Below are positions 2,448-15,654 of a DNA stretch of 15,654 nucleotides, one piece after another. A program made the position numbers and the translations under genes. The first letter of the stretch is position 1. Every line of letters begins with the position of its first letter. The notes below the pieces were generated by a model. It did no database searches and was not told the origin of the DNA. It saw only the letters and a program-made list of their open reading frames with translations. The stretch spans positions 1-15,654 of the forward strand of contig JAJRZD010000009.1 of NCBI GenBank assembly GCA_024275415.1. Direction: 5' to 3'. The stretch comes from an archaeon. GTDB lineage: Archaea; Asgardarchaeota; Thorarchaeia; Thorarchaeales; Thorarchaeaceae.

Positions 2448-3548
2448 TTACAATGTAAAGAATGCTGCTAGGTTCCCGTCGAACTCCTGGGGTGTATCAG
2501 CACCGCTGTAGGGGTAGTTCGCAAGAGCCCAGTCAAAGCAGTCCTCCATATTGGTAAAGCCCTGACCCACAAGGCCTGCTTCCAAGAACCAATATGTCCA
2601 AGCACCGTTCGAGTATTCGGGTACATCGTAGCCATATCCGGTATCTGTACAAGTTGTTGTCAGGTAGATGTTACCTGCGTTAGCATTTGACATCAACTCG
2701 TTCATTCCGCCAGAGTAGCAGTGGTCAAGAAAGACAAAGACTTGGCAGACAGCCGGTGCGAATAGGCTTGCCATCTCCACATCTGTGAAGGAGCCATCCT
2801 CACCATCCTGGCCTGCTCCATAGTCCCAGCAGCAGATTGTTTCTCCACCTGTATAGGTTGTCCCATGTCCCGAGCTGGCAAAGACGAAAATATCGTCAGC
2901 ATCAGCCAGAGCAAGGAAGTCTGCTATTGCTGTCTTGACGTTGTATTCTGTAGCTAGTCCATCCCATTGTGGGTACGAGTTTGTACCATCGCCGAAGAGC
3001 TTGATCGTGTAACCAAGCCCTGAGAGATAGTTGTACCAGTCTGTGGCATCCTCATCACAGTATGAGAGGTCGCTGACTGCATAGTAGTCAGAAATCCCAA
3101 CTATGACTGCATACTTGTTCTGCCCTTCTGGGGGCGGCGGTGGTGGTGGATCAACCACATTGTCCACAGTCACTGTGATAGAATCAGAGCCTGTGAGACC
3201 ACCACTGTCAGTAGCGGATGCGGAGATGGTATGGGTACCATCAGCGACGGCCGTCGTATCCCAAGTATAGGAGTTTCCAGTTACTACAGCAACACCATCT
3301 ATGGATATGGTCGGAGTGAGTGTACCATCTTGTGCGTCTGTTGCAGTCGCAGTGATGGTAACTACTCCCACCACAATGGCTCCATCGACCGGTGAGTCTA
3401 TTGTGACGGTTGGTGCGGTGTTTCTCCATCTTCCAAAGCCACCTGGACGGGCGACCACACCGTCAGACTGGGCTGCGACAGGCATGACTAGGACTGTCAA
3501 GCCAAAAAGGAAGAGTAGAAGCACACCGAGTAGGGGTTTTCGATTCAA
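2448..3548 (-). CDS. Secreted caspase-family (peptidase C14, metacaspase-like) protease with signal peptide, Ig-like domain and poly-Pro linker
   Basis: Likely start is TTG at 3548 after GAGGT; the ORF-track ATG at 3644 runs through the AT-rich promoter. Signal peptide NRKPLLGVLLLFLFGLTVLVMPVAA. Ig domain APTVTIDSPVDG...DSITVTVDN, then P7 linker. C14 motifs: KYAVIVGISDY, LSYCDEDA, FVFASSGHG (catalytic His), VFLDHCYSGG (catalytic Cys), GAWTYWF. Confidence 0.9.
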   Translation of the reverse strand: MNRKPLLGVLLLFLFGLTVLVMPVAAQSDGVVARPGGFGRWRNTAPTVTIDSPVDGAIVVGVVTITATATDAQDGTLTPTISIDGVAVVTGNSYTWDTTAVADGTHTISASATDSGGLTGSDSITVTVDNVVDPPPPPPPEGQNKYAVIVGISDYYAVSDLSYCDEDATDWYNYLSGLGYTIKLFGDGTNSYPQWDGLATEYNVKTAIADFLALADADDIFVFASSGHGTTYTGGETICCWDYGAGQDGEDGSFTDVEMASLFAPAVCQVFVFLDHCYSGGMNELMSNANAGNIYLTTTCTDTGYGYDVPEYSNGAWTYWFLEAGLVGQGFTNMEDCFDWALANYPYSGADTPQEFDGNLAAFFTL

Positions 3549-3596
3549 GGTAAATACCTCTGCGAAAATAGGTAATCTGTTAGAAATAAAAACTGA

Positions 3597-3640
3597 TTTA
3601 TAAATGTTCTTTAATTTCGAGGCAAAAGCATACTTATAAG
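3597..3640. promoter_or_regulatory. Divergent archaeal promoters: TTTATAAA (3597-3604) for the caspase gene and CTTATAAG (3633-3640) for the + strand operon
   Basis: Two TATA-like boxes, each with a purine-rich BRE-like segment upstream on its own strand, in the AT-rich gap between the inferred starts at 3548 and 3672. Confidence 0.55.
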
Positions 3641-3671
3641 GCACCTTTCATTTATGACGGTCGGTGAGAAG

Positions 3672-4176: not shown

Positions 4177-5283
4177 GTGAACAGACAGAAACTGGCGCTC
4201 CTGTTCAAACTCCAGGAAATGCCAATGGCACCGGATGTCAAGCTAGCAGAAGCAGTCGGAGTGTCCCCACCAACAGCCAAAGTATGGTTAGAAGGACTGA
4301 AATCTGAACAGGTGTATGTCGGAGTACAGGCCAACCTCAATGCTCGCAAGCTAGGATTGCAGGTCTACGACTATCTTGTAGAAACAAGCTCTCATGATAG
4401 CCTATTGGCAATAGAGCGGTTCTGCGATTTGCATCCATATACGATATATAGAGCTAGAGTGTATGGTGGAGGGACTCACGGGATACTGGTACAGTTCAGG
4501 CAGCCACCCGAGAGCCACAGGTTCTTGCAAAGGGCATTCGGTGTATTTCAGGACAAGAACCTAATCAAATCAGTGCGAGAACTTCCCACTTTGCTTCCGG
4601 ACTACTGCTCGATCTATACAAGACCCAGACTTGAGGCATGGGAACCTGAAACCCTCACTTGGAAGTTCGACTGGGAACAATGGTGGAAGGACAACTCTAG
4701 CACAACCCAGTCCCATGTAGAGGTCAAACGAACAGAGCCTGTTGAGACGTTCCAACTGGATGCTCTAGACGCCAAGATCCTTGAGATTATCACACGAGAT
4801 GCACGTCAGAAGAATATCCAGATAATAGAGAAACTGGGACTCGACAAGAATGCCGTGGGAGTCCAACAGATGGTTTCAAAGAGGCTCAAACGACTCCAAG
4901 AAGTCGTGGACTCCTATTCAGTGTTCGTCAATTGGACACACTTTGATGTCTATAACACATCGATGGTCGTCGCCCATGCCTCACCAGATGTGACCGAACA
5001 CCTTCACGCCAAACTGAGCAATGGACAGTTTCCGTTCGGCTCCAGTATGAGAAAGACCCCCAATGGCTTTGTCTGGTCAACAAGACTCCCTTCGGCCCAT
5101 CTGTCCGAACTCATCACGCTGGTCTGGAAAATAAGTTCCGACTTTGAAATGTTGACCATCGACTACAAGCATTCTCAGCGTTATGGATTATGGGCTGAAA
5201 CCTTCAACGAGAAGACGGGTTCTTGGAAGAGTGACGAGGAGTTCATCCTGACAAACCCATTGAAAAAGCTCAAATTGCTTTGA
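4177..5283 (+). CDS. Tandem (duplicated) Lrp/AsnC-like winged-helix transcriptional regulator
   Basis: Likely GTG start at 4177 after GAGGGT (ORF track starts at 4138). First HTH: LAEAVGVSPPTAKVWLEGLK...ANLNARKLGL. Second unit: LDALDAKILEIITRDARQKNIQIIEKLG...VSKRLKRLQE. Each is followed by a beta/alpha domain. Confidence 0.8.
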   Translation: MNRQKLALLFKLQEMPMAPDVKLAEAVGVSPPTAKVWLEGLKSEQVYVGVQANLNARKLGLQVYDYLVETSSHDSLLAIERFCDLHPYTIYRARVYGGGTHGILVQFRQPPESHRFLQRAFGVFQDKNLIKSVRELPTLLPDYCSIYTRPRLEAWEPETLTWKFDWEQWWKDNSSTTQSHVEVKRTEPVETFQLDALDAKILEIITRDARQKNIQIIEKLGLDKNAVGVQQMVSKRLKRLQEVVDSYSVFVNWTHFDVYNTSMVVAHASPDVTEHLHAKLSNGQFPFGSSMRKTPNGFVWSTRLPSAHLSELITLVWKISSDFEMLTIDYKHSQRYGLWAETFNEKTGSWKSDEEFILTNPLKKLKLL

Positions 5284-5306
5284 CTTGTAGATTATGTTTG
5301 TGTTGT

Positions 5307-6194
5307 CTAACACGATGCGGCAACACTGCGAATCCTTTGTAATATCAGTCCATGAATCTCCTTGATTGCAGATTCATAACTTCGAAAGTGAAGGACATAG
5401 ACACCACTCTTCATCGCTCGCTTTGACATATATTCCTGTATTTCTCGGGCTGCCTCAAACTCCCGCTCTCGTTGCGTTGGATCATTGCTTATCGTTTGAA
5501 GCCCGCTTACCTTTGTCTTTGCCATAAACATCGCATGATGGGTTTCCTTGTCAGGATGTACCAGTATCTCCGTCACTGCATTACTAATCCTCTTGAGTGA
5601 ACCGGGGATGATATGAACGCCCTCGACAATGGCATTCGCCCCCTCTTTAATGCATCTTGAGATGCTCTCACGCAACAATCTCTCCATCAGTTGAACTTGT
5701 GCGATATAACCACGCACCACTGGACTCAAGTTATCAGAACCGACTTGCTTGTAATTGTAAGCTTGATATGTGTGGCAATAGAGTTCTGGTACCTCACTTT
5801 TTGACATCAATGCTCTTAGGAGTTGGCGTACAGTGTCCGTGCTGAGCATCCTTGTCGCAGTGATGCTCTTGACTAGCGAGATTGAAAGCATCGACTTTCC
5901 TGTTGATGAAGCACCTTCAAGGACGACTATGAGCGGATGGACTGACCGCGTTCGGCATAATCGTTCATACTTGACTATTGACCTGAAATCCTGCTTGAAA
6001 CGTCGCTCTAGGTTGGATTCGATATGCTGATATAATTCATCGAGCGATACCTCAATACCAGAGAACAGTGACTGGATCTCAAAGACTAATGACTGTACAT
6101 GTTTGGGCGATAGTCCACAAAGCACCAGTTTACCTTCGAGTGTGGAGAATGGGTACGGGATAGAATACTCGCCGACAGTGATGTGCATGTCCAC
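5307..6194 (-). CDS. pgk2: 2-phosphoglycerate kinase-like P-loop kinase
   Basis: PLIVVLEGASSTGKS (Walker A), LSTDTVRQLLR, PELYCHTYQAY and IVEGVHIIPG match the archaeal 2PGK family pattern. Substrate not established. Confidence 0.75.
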   Translation of the reverse strand: MDMHITVGEYSIPYPFSTLEGKLVLCGLSPKHVQSLVFEIQSLFSGIEVSLDELYQHIESNLERRFKQDFRSIVKYERLCRTRSVHPLIVVLEGASSTGKSMLSISLVKSITATRMLSTDTVRQLLRALMSKSEVPELYCHTYQAYNYKQVGSDNLSPVVRGYIAQVQLMERLLRESISRCIKEGANAIVEGVHIIPGSLKRISNAVTEILVHPDKETHHAMFMAKTKVSGLQTISNDPTQREREFEAAREIQEYMSKRAMKSGVYVLHFRSYESAIKEIHGLILQRIRSVAASC

Positions 6195-7244: not shown

Positions 7245-8702
7245 ATGCCTGCGCCAGAGTTTCTCATCAAAGCTGAGCGAAAGAAGCTCCGAGAGCTGAG
7301 AGCGATAGCGTCATCCCTCGATTCACCGAACCTCGGCGAAATGTACACTGCTGCTGGAAAGCTAATGACATTGCAATGTGGAAAGTCATTACTGCCAAAA
7401 GCAATGAGCCTATTGGACAAGGGTGATGAAACCCTGAGAAGGTTGGTCTACAGGTCGGCTGGACGGAATGTATATGGCAAGTACATCCCGGAGCTGTTCG
7501 AATGGATGAAACGGATCAATCCAGCCGAACGCGAGCAGGTTCTACAGGTAGTCGAGGAATCATTCAGGACTATCGGGAGTCCGTTTTCACGGCAGGAAGT
7601 CGATGCATGGATCAATGTGCTGTCAAACATAGGTCATGAACACCAAGCAACGGTGTTCGGAATAATGGCGTTGTTGGGCGATGCAGGTTTCAAATGGGCA
7701 AAGAAACGGATAAAGAATAACATCGAAACGATATCGATTGGAACCATCGCCAAGCTGGGCGAGTTCCCACCAAACGTCAGGACGAAGTTGGTCAGAGTTG
7801 CGATAGGAGAGGCAACAAAGAGGAAGCCAGACCTGCTACCATACCTCTGTGAGATCACTGACAAAAGCAGTCTGAAATACCTGCGGTCTTTTCTCGAGAG
7901 TGGTAACTGGCAAGACCGTATTCATGTTGCAAGAGCGATAGGCCGGGTCGGAATCACATCATCCAAAGGGATTGTGATGGATATCGTGGCAGACCCAGAC
8001 TGGAGGGTCAAACAGGAACTGATCGAGTCTATCGATATCAGCAGGTCTAATCTCTCCAACGTCATGAAGATCCTCAGCTACATGGTAGCAGATTCACATT
8101 CACGCGTGAGAGGTCAGGCAGACCGTACGATTCTGCTCCTGGGGTGTGAGCCTTGCAAGGACATGGATCTTGAAACTCAAAGAGTGAAGTTGGAGAAACA
8201 GTTCCGAACGCAACTTCTCCGAGCTGCACCCAAGAACAGGGACATCGACTCAAGATGGCTCGGCATCGAGATTGACGACCATCCGATCCCAATCCTAAAT
8301 GAGAGCAGTGACGAGCCTGCTGGTATCAGCCTGATAGATATCTCTTCGAAAACTACTGAGGAAAAGGCGGTAGAATCGCCAAAATCCGATCTTCTGGCAG
8401 CGTTACTGAAAGCAAAGGAGAAAGCTGTCCTCAAAGAGCCTATCATCCCTGATGTGGTTGAAGAAGTGATAGTAGATGACATAGAGATGTCCCTACCCGC
8501 GACTGAGAAATTCATGCAGGTTCTCAAGAAACTATCCGGCAAGAGTGGGAGGGGTGTCAGTCTGGATCGCATCAAGAGGGAAGCTAGTTCGTTAGAGATG
8601 TCAGAGGAAGAAGTGGACGAGGCGCTTGGGCAACTAGAGAAGGATGGCATCGTCTATAGGTCGAGCAGAGGAACAATTAAACGGGTCGATATCGAGCTAT
8701 AG
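7245..8702 (+). CDS. HEAT-repeat protein with acidic linker and C-terminal winged-helix domain
   Basis: HEAT-like units LESGNWQDRIHVARAIG, VADPDWRVKQELIESI and VADSHSRVRGQADRTI. C-terminal ATEKFMQVLKKL...VSLDRIKREA...EEVDEALGQLEKDGIVYRSSRGTIKRV has a wH pattern. ATG directly abuts the upstream TAG. Confidence 0.85.
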   Translation: MPAPEFLIKAERKKLRELRAIASSLDSPNLGEMYTAAGKLMTLQCGKSLLPKAMSLLDKGDETLRRLVYRSAGRNVYGKYIPELFEWMKRINPAEREQVLQVVEESFRTIGSPFSRQEVDAWINVLSNIGHEHQATVFGIMALLGDAGFKWAKKRIKNNIETISIGTIAKLGEFPPNVRTKLVRVAIGEATKRKPDLLPYLCEITDKSSLKYLRSFLESGNWQDRIHVARAIGRVGITSSKGIVMDIVADPDWRVKQELIESIDISRSNLSNVMKILSYMVADSHSRVRGQADRTILLLGCEPCKDMDLETQRVKLEKQFRTQLLRAAPKNRDIDSRWLGIEIDDHPIPILNESSDEPAGISLIDISSKTTEEKAVESPKSDLLAALLKAKEKAVLKEPIIPDVVEEVIVDDIEMSLPATEKFMQVLKKLSGKSGRGVSLDRIKREASSLEMSEEEVDEALGQLEKDGIVYRSSRGTIKRVDIEL

Positions 8703-11716: not shown

Positions 11717-12001
11717 TCACCGCTTGTCCCGCGGAGTGCCAATAAGTTCGTGAAAGGATGCCGGCTCTTTACCTTCGGTAATCGGTCGAATCCGATAGTC
11801 CCGATAGGTATCGCTCAGTTTTGCCACGACTCGTGTCCCCATGAGCTTCTTGAAAAGACTCGCTTTCTTGCCCCTCCAGAGATAAACCACACGGTTTTCA
11901 TGATCTATATACACTAAGACCTTGTTTGTGTCTAGACCTATCACCTTCCCCTTAAATTCAGTCATTCTTGCATCGGACTCGATCTCAAAAGTGTCGACCA
12001 T
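11717..12001 (-). CDS. Single-domain gelsolin/cofilin-superfamily protein (ProGel-like eukaryotic signature protein)
   Basis: LDTNKVLVYIDHENRVVYLWRGKKASLFKKLMGTRVVAKL...ITEGKEPASFHELI fits the gelsolin-repeat consensus (L-x-S/T-x-x-V..D....YxWxGxxAS....A..L...EGxEPxxF). ATG at 12001 lies 6 nt after GAGGG; alternative ATG at 12007. Confidence 0.85.
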   Translation of the reverse strand: MVDTFEIESDARMTEFKGKVIGLDTNKVLVYIDHENRVVYLWRGKKASLFKKLMGTRVVAKLSDTYRDYRIRPITEGKEPASFHELIGTPRDKR

Positions 12002-12030
12002 ATTCATCCCTCAGATAGGCGTGACCATTC

Positions 12031-12844: not shown

Positions 12845-15379
12845 CTAGTAATTGGTCACACGAAGTAGTTTCTCAGGCAACTCGTCTACAGATGCGATGT
12901 CCAACACAATACCATGGTTAAGCTTGGCGAGTCGTTCCGCAGCATGGCGGTCATATTCATGCTTCGGCACGAGAATGATCATTTGGATGTCGTGGTGTTT
13001 TAGGTCGACCGCAAGGTCTTCACAAGCTGATTGATCAAATAAATATGCGTCAGTGCTGAATACGAATATCTTTTCCTTCGCCTTGGTTTCTCGGAAGTTC
13101 TCAAGTGCCAGTTTCATAACAGTCCGGCCTCCTGTTCCTCCTGATGCATGGACTTCAAGCAGATCCGCAGCGACTTTATCAACCGACACGGACTTGTCAG
13201 CGAGTTCCTTCACGATGTGGGTTTTGCTATCGAACAGAGCAACCCCGAAATCGTCCTTCTGGATACCGTATAGACCCGCCATCACAGAAATCGCAAGCAT
13301 CCCCAGTTTCTCGGGTGTGTCCATAGAACTCGACTTGTCAAGTGCCCAGAAGAATGCGCGATGTCCTTGGTACGTTTCGGCAATCAAGAAATCCTCAGCA
13401 TCTAAAGTATCGAAATCACTCCTACCGGCTGAAAGGATGGAGTCAATCGTCTCCTCCAAATCGATAAGGTCGATGTCATCACCAATCCTGAATGGTCGCA
13501 CGGTGGTGGACTGCTGGATGCCACCGAGCATCGATGAGCCCATCGTCGCTTTAGCATATCGCTGTCCAAGGTCTATGAGGAGTCGCTTCGCAATTGACTT
13601 CAGTCGTTTTCTGAGCTCGTCGGGCAGTGAATCTCGATATGTGTACCAGATTTTCACGATATTAGTGGCCGAACCTCCAAGTAATCCACCCATGACCTTT
13701 TCCGTGCGAGATGGATCGAACCCACCAAACCCGGATCCCCTACCTCTACTGTGACGTCCATAACCGGATGTTGGCAATGGACCTCCGAGTGCGGCAGCAA
13801 GATTCTCGTGGGCAATAGCACCTAGGGCTGACTGGTTGTCCTGAGCGTCCGCGACATCTGCCAACTCCTTCAGTTGGTTGAAAGAAAGAGCTGCACTTGA
13901 AACCAAGCTGTGTAATCTATCGAAGTCATCGACGCCTATCTCAATCAGCTTCTTGATGACCTGGAACGAGGGGTTGATCAGTTCTTCAATCTCATCATCA
14001 GTCATGCCAAGGCGTTTTCCAGCCTTCTCAAGTACCTCTCTCGATAGGACGATACCATGCGAAGTAAGGTCACGCACGGTCTGCCGAATATGAAGTTTAG
14101 TGGGTGACTTGCGAATCGCATTATCAGCGAACCTCTGCATCATTTGTTCCCAAGCCTTTGCCTGCGTCGTTGTCCGAAGATTCCCGCTAAGTTTGTCGGC
14201 TTGCCTGACCTGCATCCGGAGAAAATCGGAAGACGAGGATCTTGACAGTGCGTCAGTAACTGTGTCTTCAGCAAGTTTCTGTACTAGTCTTTCCCAACTG
14301 TCCGAATCTTGAGCTGACTCAGCCAGTTGTGCCATGTCAACATTCTTACGGGCACCTTCCTCGTAATGCTTGTCATATGCGTTGAGGATATTGGATGAGA
14401 AATTCTTTCCAGTGGATTTCTCAATCGATTTGCCGAACTCGATTGATTGACTGAGATAGTATTGCTTGGCAGCTGAGTCTATGAGGTCTTCGACCGTACG
14501 CGGGACTCTTTTCAGATGCCGTGCAAAGTCAGCTGCATCACTCAAGTTTTGGAGGTGCTCCTCAAGTTTTGACTGGAGTTTCTCTAACTCGGATTTGTCA
14601 ACAGATTTCATTTGTTCTATTAACGACAACGCTTTTGCAGCAGAGGTCGGGTCTCTGTCAGAAAGGTCTTCAAATCGCTTGAATAGGTCTGATGTCTTCG
14701 TGAGAATAGACGCCGCTGCAACCTGCTCCGATGTGGATCCTAACCTCTCAACTTCGGGTAATACTCCGAGGGTCGACGCGTTTAGAATATCACGCGCTGC
14801 CAGATTGCCGAGTTTCTCAAGCAGTTCCTTGGATGTTTCTGTCCGAAGCTGTTCATCTGACGAAATCCCCCGTAGGACTATATCGCCCTCCTTCAAATAA
14901 TCAGTGGCTACGTCAAGTAGCGACCTGTCCGTTCTTTTGCGGAGCATCTGGAGGTACTCGAATCCGGCCTCGACCTTATCTTTTCTAATGGTCTTTGCAA
15001 GTTCCTGCTCTTTTCTGATCTGTTCCATGACCTTCTGAAGCTGGTCTTTTTCAACCGTCTTTACAGTTGACACGGAATCTACATCTTTACTCTCAGCCTT
15101 CACCTCTTTGGTAGTTCCGAGAATGATTTCTTCAGCAAGAAGCCGTGCAATGTCCTGGTCGGCAGGATATGTTGTGAACACCGCAGCATCAATGAAGTCA
15201 TCAAGCGTTAGGAATCCTTTTCGAAAGAACCTTGATGAGAGGATCTCAGCAATCGATTGAGTTTGCCGCACACTTGGATATACCCGTACATCGTCACATT
15301 TTCGCATCTTTGACACAAACTCATATGCGAAATCTGGCACACTACTTGGAACAGGCTGATATCTAGGCGAGAGAGTCAT
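12845..15379 (-). CDS. Large VWA-domain protein (CoxE/ViaA-like partner of a MoxR AAA+ ATPase)
   Basis: C-terminal VWA with MIDAS: FFWALDKSSSM (DxSxS), ASGGTGG and VFSTDA. Pre-VWA motif VRPFRIGDDIDLIDLEETI. Long helical middle region. Confidence 0.9.
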   Translation of the reverse strand: MTLSPRYQPVPSSVPDFAYEFVSKMRKCDDVRVYPSVRQTQSIAEILSSRFFRKGFLTLDDFIDAAVFTTYPADQDIARLLAEEIILGTTKEVKAESKDVDSVSTVKTVEKDQLQKVMEQIRKEQELAKTIRKDKVEAGFEYLQMLRKRTDRSLLDVATDYLKEGDIVLRGISSDEQLRTETSKELLEKLGNLAARDILNASTLGVLPEVERLGSTSEQVAAASILTKTSDLFKRFEDLSDRDPTSAAKALSLIEQMKSVDKSELEKLQSKLEEHLQNLSDAADFARHLKRVPRTVEDLIDSAAKQYYLSQSIEFGKSIEKSTGKNFSSNILNAYDKHYEEGARKNVDMAQLAESAQDSDSWERLVQKLAEDTVTDALSRSSSSDFLRMQVRQADKLSGNLRTTTQAKAWEQMMQRFADNAIRKSPTKLHIRQTVRDLTSHGIVLSREVLEKAGKRLGMTDDEIEELINPSFQVIKKLIEIGVDDFDRLHSLVSSAALSFNQLKELADVADAQDNQSALGAIAHENLAAALGGPLPTSGYGRHSRGRGSGFGGFDPSRTEKVMGGLLGGSATNIVKIWYTYRDSLPDELRKRLKSIAKRLLIDLGQRYAKATMGSSMLGGIQQSTTVRPFRIGDDIDLIDLEETIDSILSAGRSDFDTLDAEDFLIAETYQGHRAFFWALDKSSSMDTPEKLGMLAISVMAGLYGIQKDDFGVALFDSKTHIVKELADKSVSVDKVAADLLEVHASGGTGGRTVMKLALENFRETKAKEKIFVFSTDAYLFDQSACEDLAVDLKHHDIQMIILVPKHEYDRHAAERLAKLNHGIVLDIASVDELPEKLLRVTNY

Positions 15380-15654
15380 TTCGAACTTCCCCTTGACCCG
15401 ATCACCCTTCGCACCAGCTGATTGACAGCTGGCTCAGGTTCGATACCAGGTCTAAATCTCAGTGCTCCCGTGAGTACATATGTAGCAGCTTCAGAAATAA
15501 CAGTAGCATCTATCTCCTTGAGATTCTTCCTCTTTGCCATCTGGGCTGCAAGACGAGCTATGGAGATACCAGCACGTATTGATGCAGGAATCTCAATATC
15601 TGTGCTGTTCCTTGTCGCTGATACCAAGCCATAGATCGTTTCCAGAGCCGTGTC
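15376..15654 (-). CDS. 3' end (partial, runs off the right edge) of a MoxR-like AAA+ ATPase (lid domain)
   Basis: Frame is open to 15654 (DTALETIYGLVSATRNSTDIEIPASIRAGISIARLA...AATYVLTGAL), matching the MoxR lid/sensor-2 S-x-R helix. Its TGA overlaps the VWA ATG (ATGA, 4-bp overlap). Confidence 0.8.
   Translation of the reverse strand, partial: DTALETIYGLVSATRNSTDIEIPASIRAGISIARLAAQMAKRKNLKEIDATVISEAATYVLTGALRFRPGIEPEPAVNQLVRRVIGSRGSSK

Follow-up and report, generated by a model that had tools for sequence, protein, structure and literature searches.

An AAA+ lid-like N-terminal domain on the VWA adaptor of a MoxR-type ATPase in Asgard archaea

Described MoxR/VWA systems and the Thorarchaeota pair

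The machines that combine a MoxR-type AAA+ ATPase with a partner carrying a von Willebrand factor A (VWA) domain, i.e., NorQD, CbbQO, CobST, RavA-ViaA, the chelatases and midasin, are only now being resolved structurally, and at issue is how the N-terminal part of the adaptor is attached to the ATPase ring. NorQ-NorD, a MoxR AAA+ ATPase with its VWA partner, serves in FeB insertion into cNOR, the nitric oxide reductase that depends on cytochrome c (PDB 9qh4-9qhg; PMC13036017, PMC9976466). In the solved relatives NorQD (PMC13036017) and CobST (bioRxiv 10.64898/2026.10.09.757910, 10.64898/2026.07.21.739949) the adaptor N-domain is on the ring periphery and a finger of the VWA domain is in the pore. 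The adaptor N-domains described so far are mutually unrelated. The pair described here is encoded at the end of contig JAJRZD010000009.1 of a Thorarchaeota-type genome; the entire contig of 15,654 bases was analysed and is termed the window. It is a MoxR/VWA pair of the NorQD, CbbQO and CobST kind, and its adaptor starts with a domain of about 80 residues that resembles the lid of an AAA+ ATPase. The reading favored here, with a probability of about 0.6, is that this N-domain is a diverged, lone MoxR/chelatase-type lid that anchors the adaptor to the partner ATPase. The similarity, fold, conservation, synteny and domain architecture of the adaptor are documented below, beginning with its coordinates. 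Predicted structures are from AlphaFold2 (AF2), with confidence given as the predicted local distance difference test (pLDDT); HMM stands for hidden Markov model and MIDAS for metal ion-dependent adhesion site.

12845-15379, minus strand: gene of the VWA adaptor protein, 844 residues (P0001), from the open reading frame and its translation
15104-15352, minus strand: lid-like N-terminal domain, residues 10-92, from AF2, VIA-align, hhalign, HMM and ESM Atlas features
15302-15304, minus strand: codon of Arg26, counterpart of the "TR" arginine of MoxR lids (R235 of the ATPase), from conservation and alignment register
15266-15268, minus strand: codon of Arg38, within P-S-x-R, counterpart of R247 in the ATPase sensor-2 motif P-A-S-I-R, from conservation and alignment register
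15047-15103, minus strand: disordered variable linker, residues 93-111, with pLDDT below 50 and with sequence and length that vary among homologues
13787-15043, minus strand: all-alpha, solenoid-like central domain, residues 113-531 (about 420 residues), AF2 pLDDT mostly above 90
12851-13510, minus strand: VWA/MIDAS domain, residues 624-843, from Foldseek and conserved MIDAS residues
13325-13339, minus strand: codons of the MIDAS residues D681, S683 and S685 (T749 and D777 are further MIDAS residues)
15376-15654, minus strand: 3′ end of the gene for the MoxR-type AAA+ ATPase, last 92 codons, which correspond to its lid; open reading frame cut by the contig end
15376-15379, minus strand: ATGA overlap, in which the stop codon of the ATPase gene shares bases with the start codon of the VWA gene, as seen in the sequence itself

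The layout follows that of NorQ-NorD, where a small MoxR-type ATPase gene precedes a long partner with an N-domain, a flexible linker and a C-terminal VWA domain with its MIDAS. However, the N-domain of NorD, at about 240 residues, is reported to be unlike any database protein and is not described as lid-like, and the disordered linker of NorD is replaced in this adaptor by the 420-residue solenoid. In NorQD the N-domain of the adaptor attaches to the ring (PMC13036017), where it binds the small subdomain of the ATPase, whereas docking of the adaptor described here is predicted only and the predicted site is on the large subdomain. CobS-CobT shares the order of N-domain, linker and VWA domain in its adaptor, with the N-domain at the ring periphery and the VWA shaft of CobT reaching into the pore, but the CobT N-domain is described as M48C (peptidase-like) with a beta-sheet and not as a helical lid.

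The Mg-chelatase proteins ChlD/BchD and certain fused Asgard proteins also have AAA+ material at the N-terminus, then a linker and a C-terminal VWA domain, together with a separate ATPase of the ChlI/MoxR type. They carry a whole AAA module, with both P-loop core and lid, whereas the adaptor has a lid-like part only, beginning at residue ~10; the absence of a P-loop core sets it apart from ChlD/BchD. A search of NCBIfam with the VWA protein gave no match, the BchD-ChlD model included. The fused chains, MoxR AAA_5 plus VWA with an intact Walker A, are found in other Asgard genomes (L015:1029-2972, minus strand, 647 residues; L016:771-2912, minus strand, 713 residues), and the N-domain HMM falls on their lids with 20-22 bits. 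A ChlD-like fused AAA-VWA layout is a plausible ancestor of the lid-only form, and the family could plausibly link, in evolution, the fused proteins of ChlD type to MoxR/VWA pairs encoded as separate chains. The literature searched gave no account of a VWA partner whose N-domain is a lid alone, and there is no Pfam model for the N-domain; to this extent the original prediction, made from the letters of the window, that this way of coupling may be undescribed agrees with what was found. The source annotation of family members reads only "VWA domain-containing" or "hypothetical", thus a domain definition missing from Pfam would serve proteins that now have no better label.

Sequence and fold of the N-domain

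The remainder of the ATPase gene was recovered from contig C114 of the same assembly. The last 331 bases of the window (15324-15654) are 99% identical to the end of C114 (5464-5794), on which the 5′ portion of the gene is found; this overlap is probably where the two contigs join, strain variation having broken the assembly. The complete ATPase has 312 residues from a GTG start codon, or more likely 306 from Met7. It displays a Walker A motif, GPPGVGKT, at residue 59 and scores above the cut-off with both Pfam AAA_5 (48.6 bits) and AAA_3 (43.5 bits), and its closest solved relatives are the AAA modules of midasin and the MoxR protein 2r44. Taken together these features identify the neighbor, at the level of its sequence, as an AAA+ ATPase of the MoxR type. 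Its own lid gives a weak match to Pfam AAA_lid_2 (15 bits, below the 22.7 cut-off), and the sensor-2 motif P-A-S-I-R is invariant in the ATPase family alignment.

An ungapped pairing, with 12/36 identities, between residues 19-54 of the VWA protein and an ATPase segment that starts YGLVSATR was the basis of the original prediction and was reproduced exactly; the feature as first placed, at 15170-15325, covers residues 19-70 of the adaptor. Of all ungapped 36-mers that pair residues 1-120 of the VWA protein with the ATPase over its entire 312 residues, this one scores best (BLOSUM62 score 46). When the ATPase was shuffled 1000 times the mean score was 19.7 (standard deviation 5.2) and the maximum 41, so that none of the 1000 reached 46. 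BLASTP of the VWA protein against the ATPase returns the same pairing, with 13/42 identities and a pairwise E-value of 4e-5. The sensor-2-like S-x-R that had been pointed out is also found, with R38 opposite R247 of the ATPase in BLASTP, hhalign and hmmsearch.

Homologues fall into about 110 clusters, all from Asgard archaea and mostly Thorarchaeota, equal in length to P0001. Conservation is very high over the first 90 residues, after which comes a variable linker. With an alignment from Thorarchaeota only, hhalign of the N-domain against the ATPase family profile gives a single match, in the register of the 36-mer, at a probability of 41%. The probability increases to 78% once the N-domains of Thermoprotei and Lokiarchaeia partners are added, and to 88% (E 3.3e-6) with 44 diverse N-domain members, the register being retained; profile-profile comparison thus bears out the lid reading. 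Column-shuffled N-domain alignments have a maximum score of 22.1 versus 37.3 for the real alignment, with 0 of 150 reaching the real score. When the whole 844-residue profile was compared with the ATPase profile, the match between N-domain and lid was the sole match. No Walker A pattern was detected in the VWA protein by a pattern search and the remainder of P0001 has no match to the ATPase profile, which leaves, as had been proposed, the lid part only.

In a six-frame search of 151 Asgard genomes, the HMM of the N-domain finds its own family in 61. All other matches are to open reading frames of MoxR size (294-332 residues) or to fused AAA-VWA frames (647-730 residues), always at the lid, and no other AAA+ class is among these secondary matches. 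In seven genomes the second match is the ATPase gene directly upstream of the primary match, with per-genome E-values from 2.5e-6 to 1.7e-4. An hmmsearch on 130 ATPases (131 domain rows) places the N-domain on the lid, at approximately residues 220-270, with 16-27 bits among the matches listed. In its register Arg17 of the HMM (R26) is on the arginine of the lid TR motif and Arg29 of the HMM (R38) on the sensor-2 arginine.

The scores in this search differ among ATPases: 16 bits for the neighbor's lid, 23-25 for Thermoprotei partners, 24-27 for other Asgard partners, and 20-22 for unrelated MoxR or fused AAA-VWA proteins. The lower score of the neighbor's lid in comparison with other MoxR lids points to an old divergence and not to a recent copy. 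The original prediction, that the adaptor carries a copy of its neighbor's own lid, is thus borne out as to the likeness to MoxR lids and not as to a special likeness to the neighbor (16 bits versus 20-27 for the other lids). A recent copying of that lid was rejected on the same scores.

Conservation was assessed in 61 diverse full-length members that are 20-65% identical to P0001. F17, R26 and R38 of the N-domain are invariant in all 61, in agreement with the importance first attached to Arg38, and are the only invariant residues outside of the VWA region. In or next to the VWA domain the invariant residues are G619, D681, S683, S685, the adjacent M686, F716, L741 and D777. R26 and R38 are thus invariant alongside MIDAS residues, so that the constraint on the two arginines of the lid motifs equals that on the metal site. 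The N-domain also has motifs specific to the family, F-A-x-E-F and T-T-x-P-x-D-Q.

The AF2 model of the N-domain shows four helices (residues 11-27, 37-54, 59-68 and 72-87) with pLDDT above 90. The fold is a compact four-helix bundle, as is expected of an AAA+ lid. The top VIA-align matches are the lids of BchI, dynein and CbbQ, followed by those of Rea1, NorQ and MCM; thus a lid-type fold for residues 10-92, with lids of the chelatase/MoxR/dynein clade as the nearest structures, is consistent with what had been predicted. A fold search of the ESM Atlas with the N-domain found its own family and AAA_5 ATPases. In a feature search of the same Atlas every neighbor that bears a Pfam family is AAA_lid_8, AAA_lid_2, AAA_5 or CbbQ_C, with scores of 0.82-0.88 that are to be taken as leads only.

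In the aligned register, lid helices 2-4 and the helix after them are matched by the N-domain, and the first lid helix, which directly follows beta5 of the ATPase, has no counterpart. The P-loop alpha/beta core that lies upstream of an AAA+ lid in the same chain is lacking, as the N-domain starts at residue ~10. Such lids are also recognized by a sensor-2 arginine where the third lid helix begins and by the TR arginine upstream of it; these are present as R38 and R26. The Pfam families AAA_lid_2 (PF17863), AAA_lid_8 (PF17868) and CbbQ_C (PF08406) have in common with the N-domain the four-helix bundle and the aligned TR and sensor-2 arginines, and they are its nearest neighbors by language model and by fold. 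The N-domain differs from them in that it does not match their models, has no preceding P-loop domain and displays motifs of its own.

Predicted contact with the ATPase and rival explanations

A complex of the ATPase and the N-domain, both supplied as alignments, was predicted in three runs without nucleotide. The score is 0.66 (runs 0.65-0.67), versus 0.00 for the best control; in a benchmark 58 of 80 solved complexes attained the 0.66 mark, as did 2 of 110 mismatched pairs. At least 95% of contacts are common to the runs, with a partner pLDDT of at least 84. Contacts predicted with confidence involve, on the ATPase, the helix before Walker A (40-53), I58, P175, M178, D190 and the strand 193-197. 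Those on the N-domain, if its chain is numbered 1-83, are R38, Q39, S42, E45, I46, S48-R50, F52, R53, D64, the F68-A73 loop and Q75. This numbering was preferred over that of P0001 because the contacts then make up one helix face and one loop. In the predicted interface the basic face of the N-domain helix is complementary to an acidic ATPase helix (D43, E46, D47, E49). Among the ATPases compared, only those that have this kind of partner conserve the helix that precedes Walker A (Q-Y...D-x-E...L-x-P). W195 was considered as a partner-specific hot spot and was rejected, as the tryptophan is also found in MoxR ATPases without such a partner. From the modeling, the N-domain likely binds the ATPase.

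On the favored reading, the P-loop core would have been lost, or was never present, and the lid subdomain would stand alone at the N-terminus of the adaptor and anchor it to the partner ATPase. The N-domain would pack on the large subdomain of the ATPase, against the acidic helix preceding Walker A and strand beta5, through its conserved T-T-Y-P loop and the basic side (R38, R50, R53) of its sensor-2-like helix. The distant VWA/MIDAS domain would then engage both the pore of the ring and the client, following the pattern of NorQ-NorD and CobS-CobT. This would make an Asgard and TACK archaeal family whose anchor derives from an ATPase-type lid and retains its two signature arginines. We infer a role for the invariant R26 and R38; in a small, well-folded domain of 80 residues they are the two obvious positions that bear on the coupling of adaptor and ring.

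It should be noted that several results weigh against this reading. With 23 N-domains as queries no Pfam AAA_lid model (AAA_lid_2, AAA_lid_8, CbbQ_C) gives a match at E up to 10, and Pfam searches with the whole of P0001 or with residues 1-120 return no lid family. Sequence-profile searches of the PDB with two N-domain alignments give no lid and only chance matches (apolipophorin and the presequence of the ATP synthase beta subunit). Foldseek of the N-domain against the PDB has no significant match (best E 0.4), with NorQ chains at ranks 2, 4 and 6. The N-domain profile, when searched against 1.84 billion proteins, finds only its own family at E of 0.001 or less, with no ATPase lid among the at least 150 representatives listed. 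In the complex prediction, the residue numbering of the N-domain chain is ambiguous (1-83 or that of P0001), and the interface is on the large subdomain near the nucleotide pocket, versus the lid in NorQD and CobST. Because the N-domain looks like a lid and the site is near that of the cis lid, the model possibly echoes a learnt intramolecular packing of lid on core, so that the passing score may in part reflect such packing, which the controls leave possible.

In the search of 1.84 billion proteins all matches listed, except one, are N-terminal in proteins of mostly 650-1200 residues or in fragments thereof. The exception, P0375 (629 residues), has seven internal stretches that match the N-domain profile, the best at 305-345, and is unlike all other matches listed.

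We infer the homology to lids from several signals that are concordant and individually modest. On these sequence comparisons the N-domain is very likely homologous to lids of the MoxR/chelatase type. It fails formal membership of the Pfam lid families, yet very probably works like such a lid and descends from one. Convergence, i.e., a small four-helix bundle that has an S-x-R motif by chance and is unrelated by descent to AAA+ lids, would accord with the negative searches above. However, four kinds of method agree on the family and on the register, the signal grows as the profile is diversified, the two motif arginines coincide, and the genome-wide HMM matches only lids of the MoxR type; convergence is therefore considered very improbable. 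Archaeal genomes can be expected to carry AAA+ proteins of other classes (e.g., Cdc48, PAN, RFC and MCM), and the HMM matches none of these in the genomes searched, where their presence is assumed.

A domain derived from a lid may also have a partner other than the ATPase. This could be a client protein, or the adaptor's own solenoid or VWA domain, on which the N-domain would act as an autoinhibitory latch, and the arginines would serve that contact. Such roles have precedents: target specificity was proposed as the main role of the NorD N-domain in the 2023 NorQD paper, the NorD model has the binding surface of the N-domain covered by its own linker (PMC13036017), and the CobT N-domain also contacts CobN. 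But client-binding N-domains are described as variable, whereas the N-domain of this family is highly conserved across phyla along with the ATPase, and the predicted complex with the ATPase passes its controls. Another partner is thus regarded as unlikely. A role in the active site should also be considered, whereby the N-domain sits as a lid would on the P-loop core of a single ring subunit, e.g., a seam subunit with its own lid displaced, and Arg38 serves in trans as a sensor-2-like residue; ATP hydrolysis would then depend on occupancy by the adaptor. The invariance of Arg38 and Arg26 exceeds the need of a plain hydrophobic anchor, and the sensor-2-like helix is the main contact of the N-domain. 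The predicted contacts on the ATPase are close to the nucleotide (the helix preceding Walker A, I58, P175/M178 past sensor 1, D190, and 193-197 beside the presumed arginine finger), and the small subdomain of the CobS seam subunit is mobile or invisible. However, the ATPase already carries its own complete lid, in which the sensor-2 motif is invariant, so nothing is missing for the N-domain to supply. The prediction was made without nucleotide, was seen as a contact list and not as geometry, and may have learnt the cis packing, and the N-domains of the solved NorQD and CobST bind the outer side of the small subdomain. An active-site role is for these reasons rather unlikely. The same holds for its extended form, in which the orphan lid would be a trans-acting regulatory lid with Arg38 at the nucleotide pocket, the adaptor would switch or pace ATP hydrolysis itself, and the domain would be all that is left of a fused, ChlD-like AAA-VWA ancestor. 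Anchoring of the adaptor by a lone lid is the reading retained here.

Other parts of the adaptor and gene context

The full-length AF2 model of P0001 has a mean pLDDT of 89. In Foldseek searches the solenoid region (113-531) is overlain by TPR/solenoid proteins and Ro60, and a Pfam search of P0001 gave no family for this central domain. Ahead of the VWA domain the model has a long helix (587-613) and then a loop of low confidence (616-622). The best structural matches of the VWA domain in Foldseek are the Rea1 MIDAS domain (E 1.9e-5) and the NorD VWA domain (E 4e-5), with the MIDAS domain of MDN1 also found. The Pfam VWA_3 match in P0001 is weak. The MIDAS is intact, with D681-x-S683-x-S685, T749 and D777, and these residues are invariant or nearly so among family members. 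The solenoid and VWA domains together (residues 113-843; window 12845-15043) were aligned by Foldseek to Ro60, which has a TROVE solenoid and a VWA domain, over about 680 columns at E 3e-5 with a low template modeling score (0.17-0.30). This may be a shared layout, or merely two common folds that occur in the same order.

The VWA gene adjoins a co-oriented MoxR AAA+ gene, as is found with MoxR-associated VWA partners. Both the order of ATPase then VWA gene and the N-domain are maintained in Thermoprotei (partner of 679 residues) and Lokiarchaeia (partner of 833 residues), and the order is also present in further Asgard genomes. Additional family members are in Hodarchaeota and Bathyarchaeota. 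The N-domain profile has matches in 40 of 72 high-quality genomes of the sampled phylum, a few of which show only weak matches on MoxR lids.

No nor genes are found near the ATPase-VWA pair. Other genes of the window are those of a caspase-family (Peptidase_C14) protein with a Big_7 domain (2448-3644, minus strand), a HEAT-repeat protein with an RPA_C-like end (7245-8702, plus strand) and a small protein with a weak gelsolin repeat match (11717-12007, minus strand; E 0.0013, 18.9 bits, below the 21-bit cut-off). They show no visible link to the pair.

Just upstream of the pair is an N6_N4 DNA methyltransferase gene, both in this genome (L003:2330-3670, plus strand, 446 residues) and at two Lokiarchaeia loci (L006 and L007, each at 5024-5860, minus strand, 278 residues). 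The gene is absent from the Thermoprotei locus, and it may be a conserved neighbor or a coincidence. In Lokiarchaeia an open reading frame of 787 residues that has no Pfam family starts 20 bases after the VWA gene on the same strand (L007:9479-11842, plus strand; L006:9481-11844, plus strand), and its product may be a third component or a client. In the Thorarchaeota window a convergent gene is found at this place.

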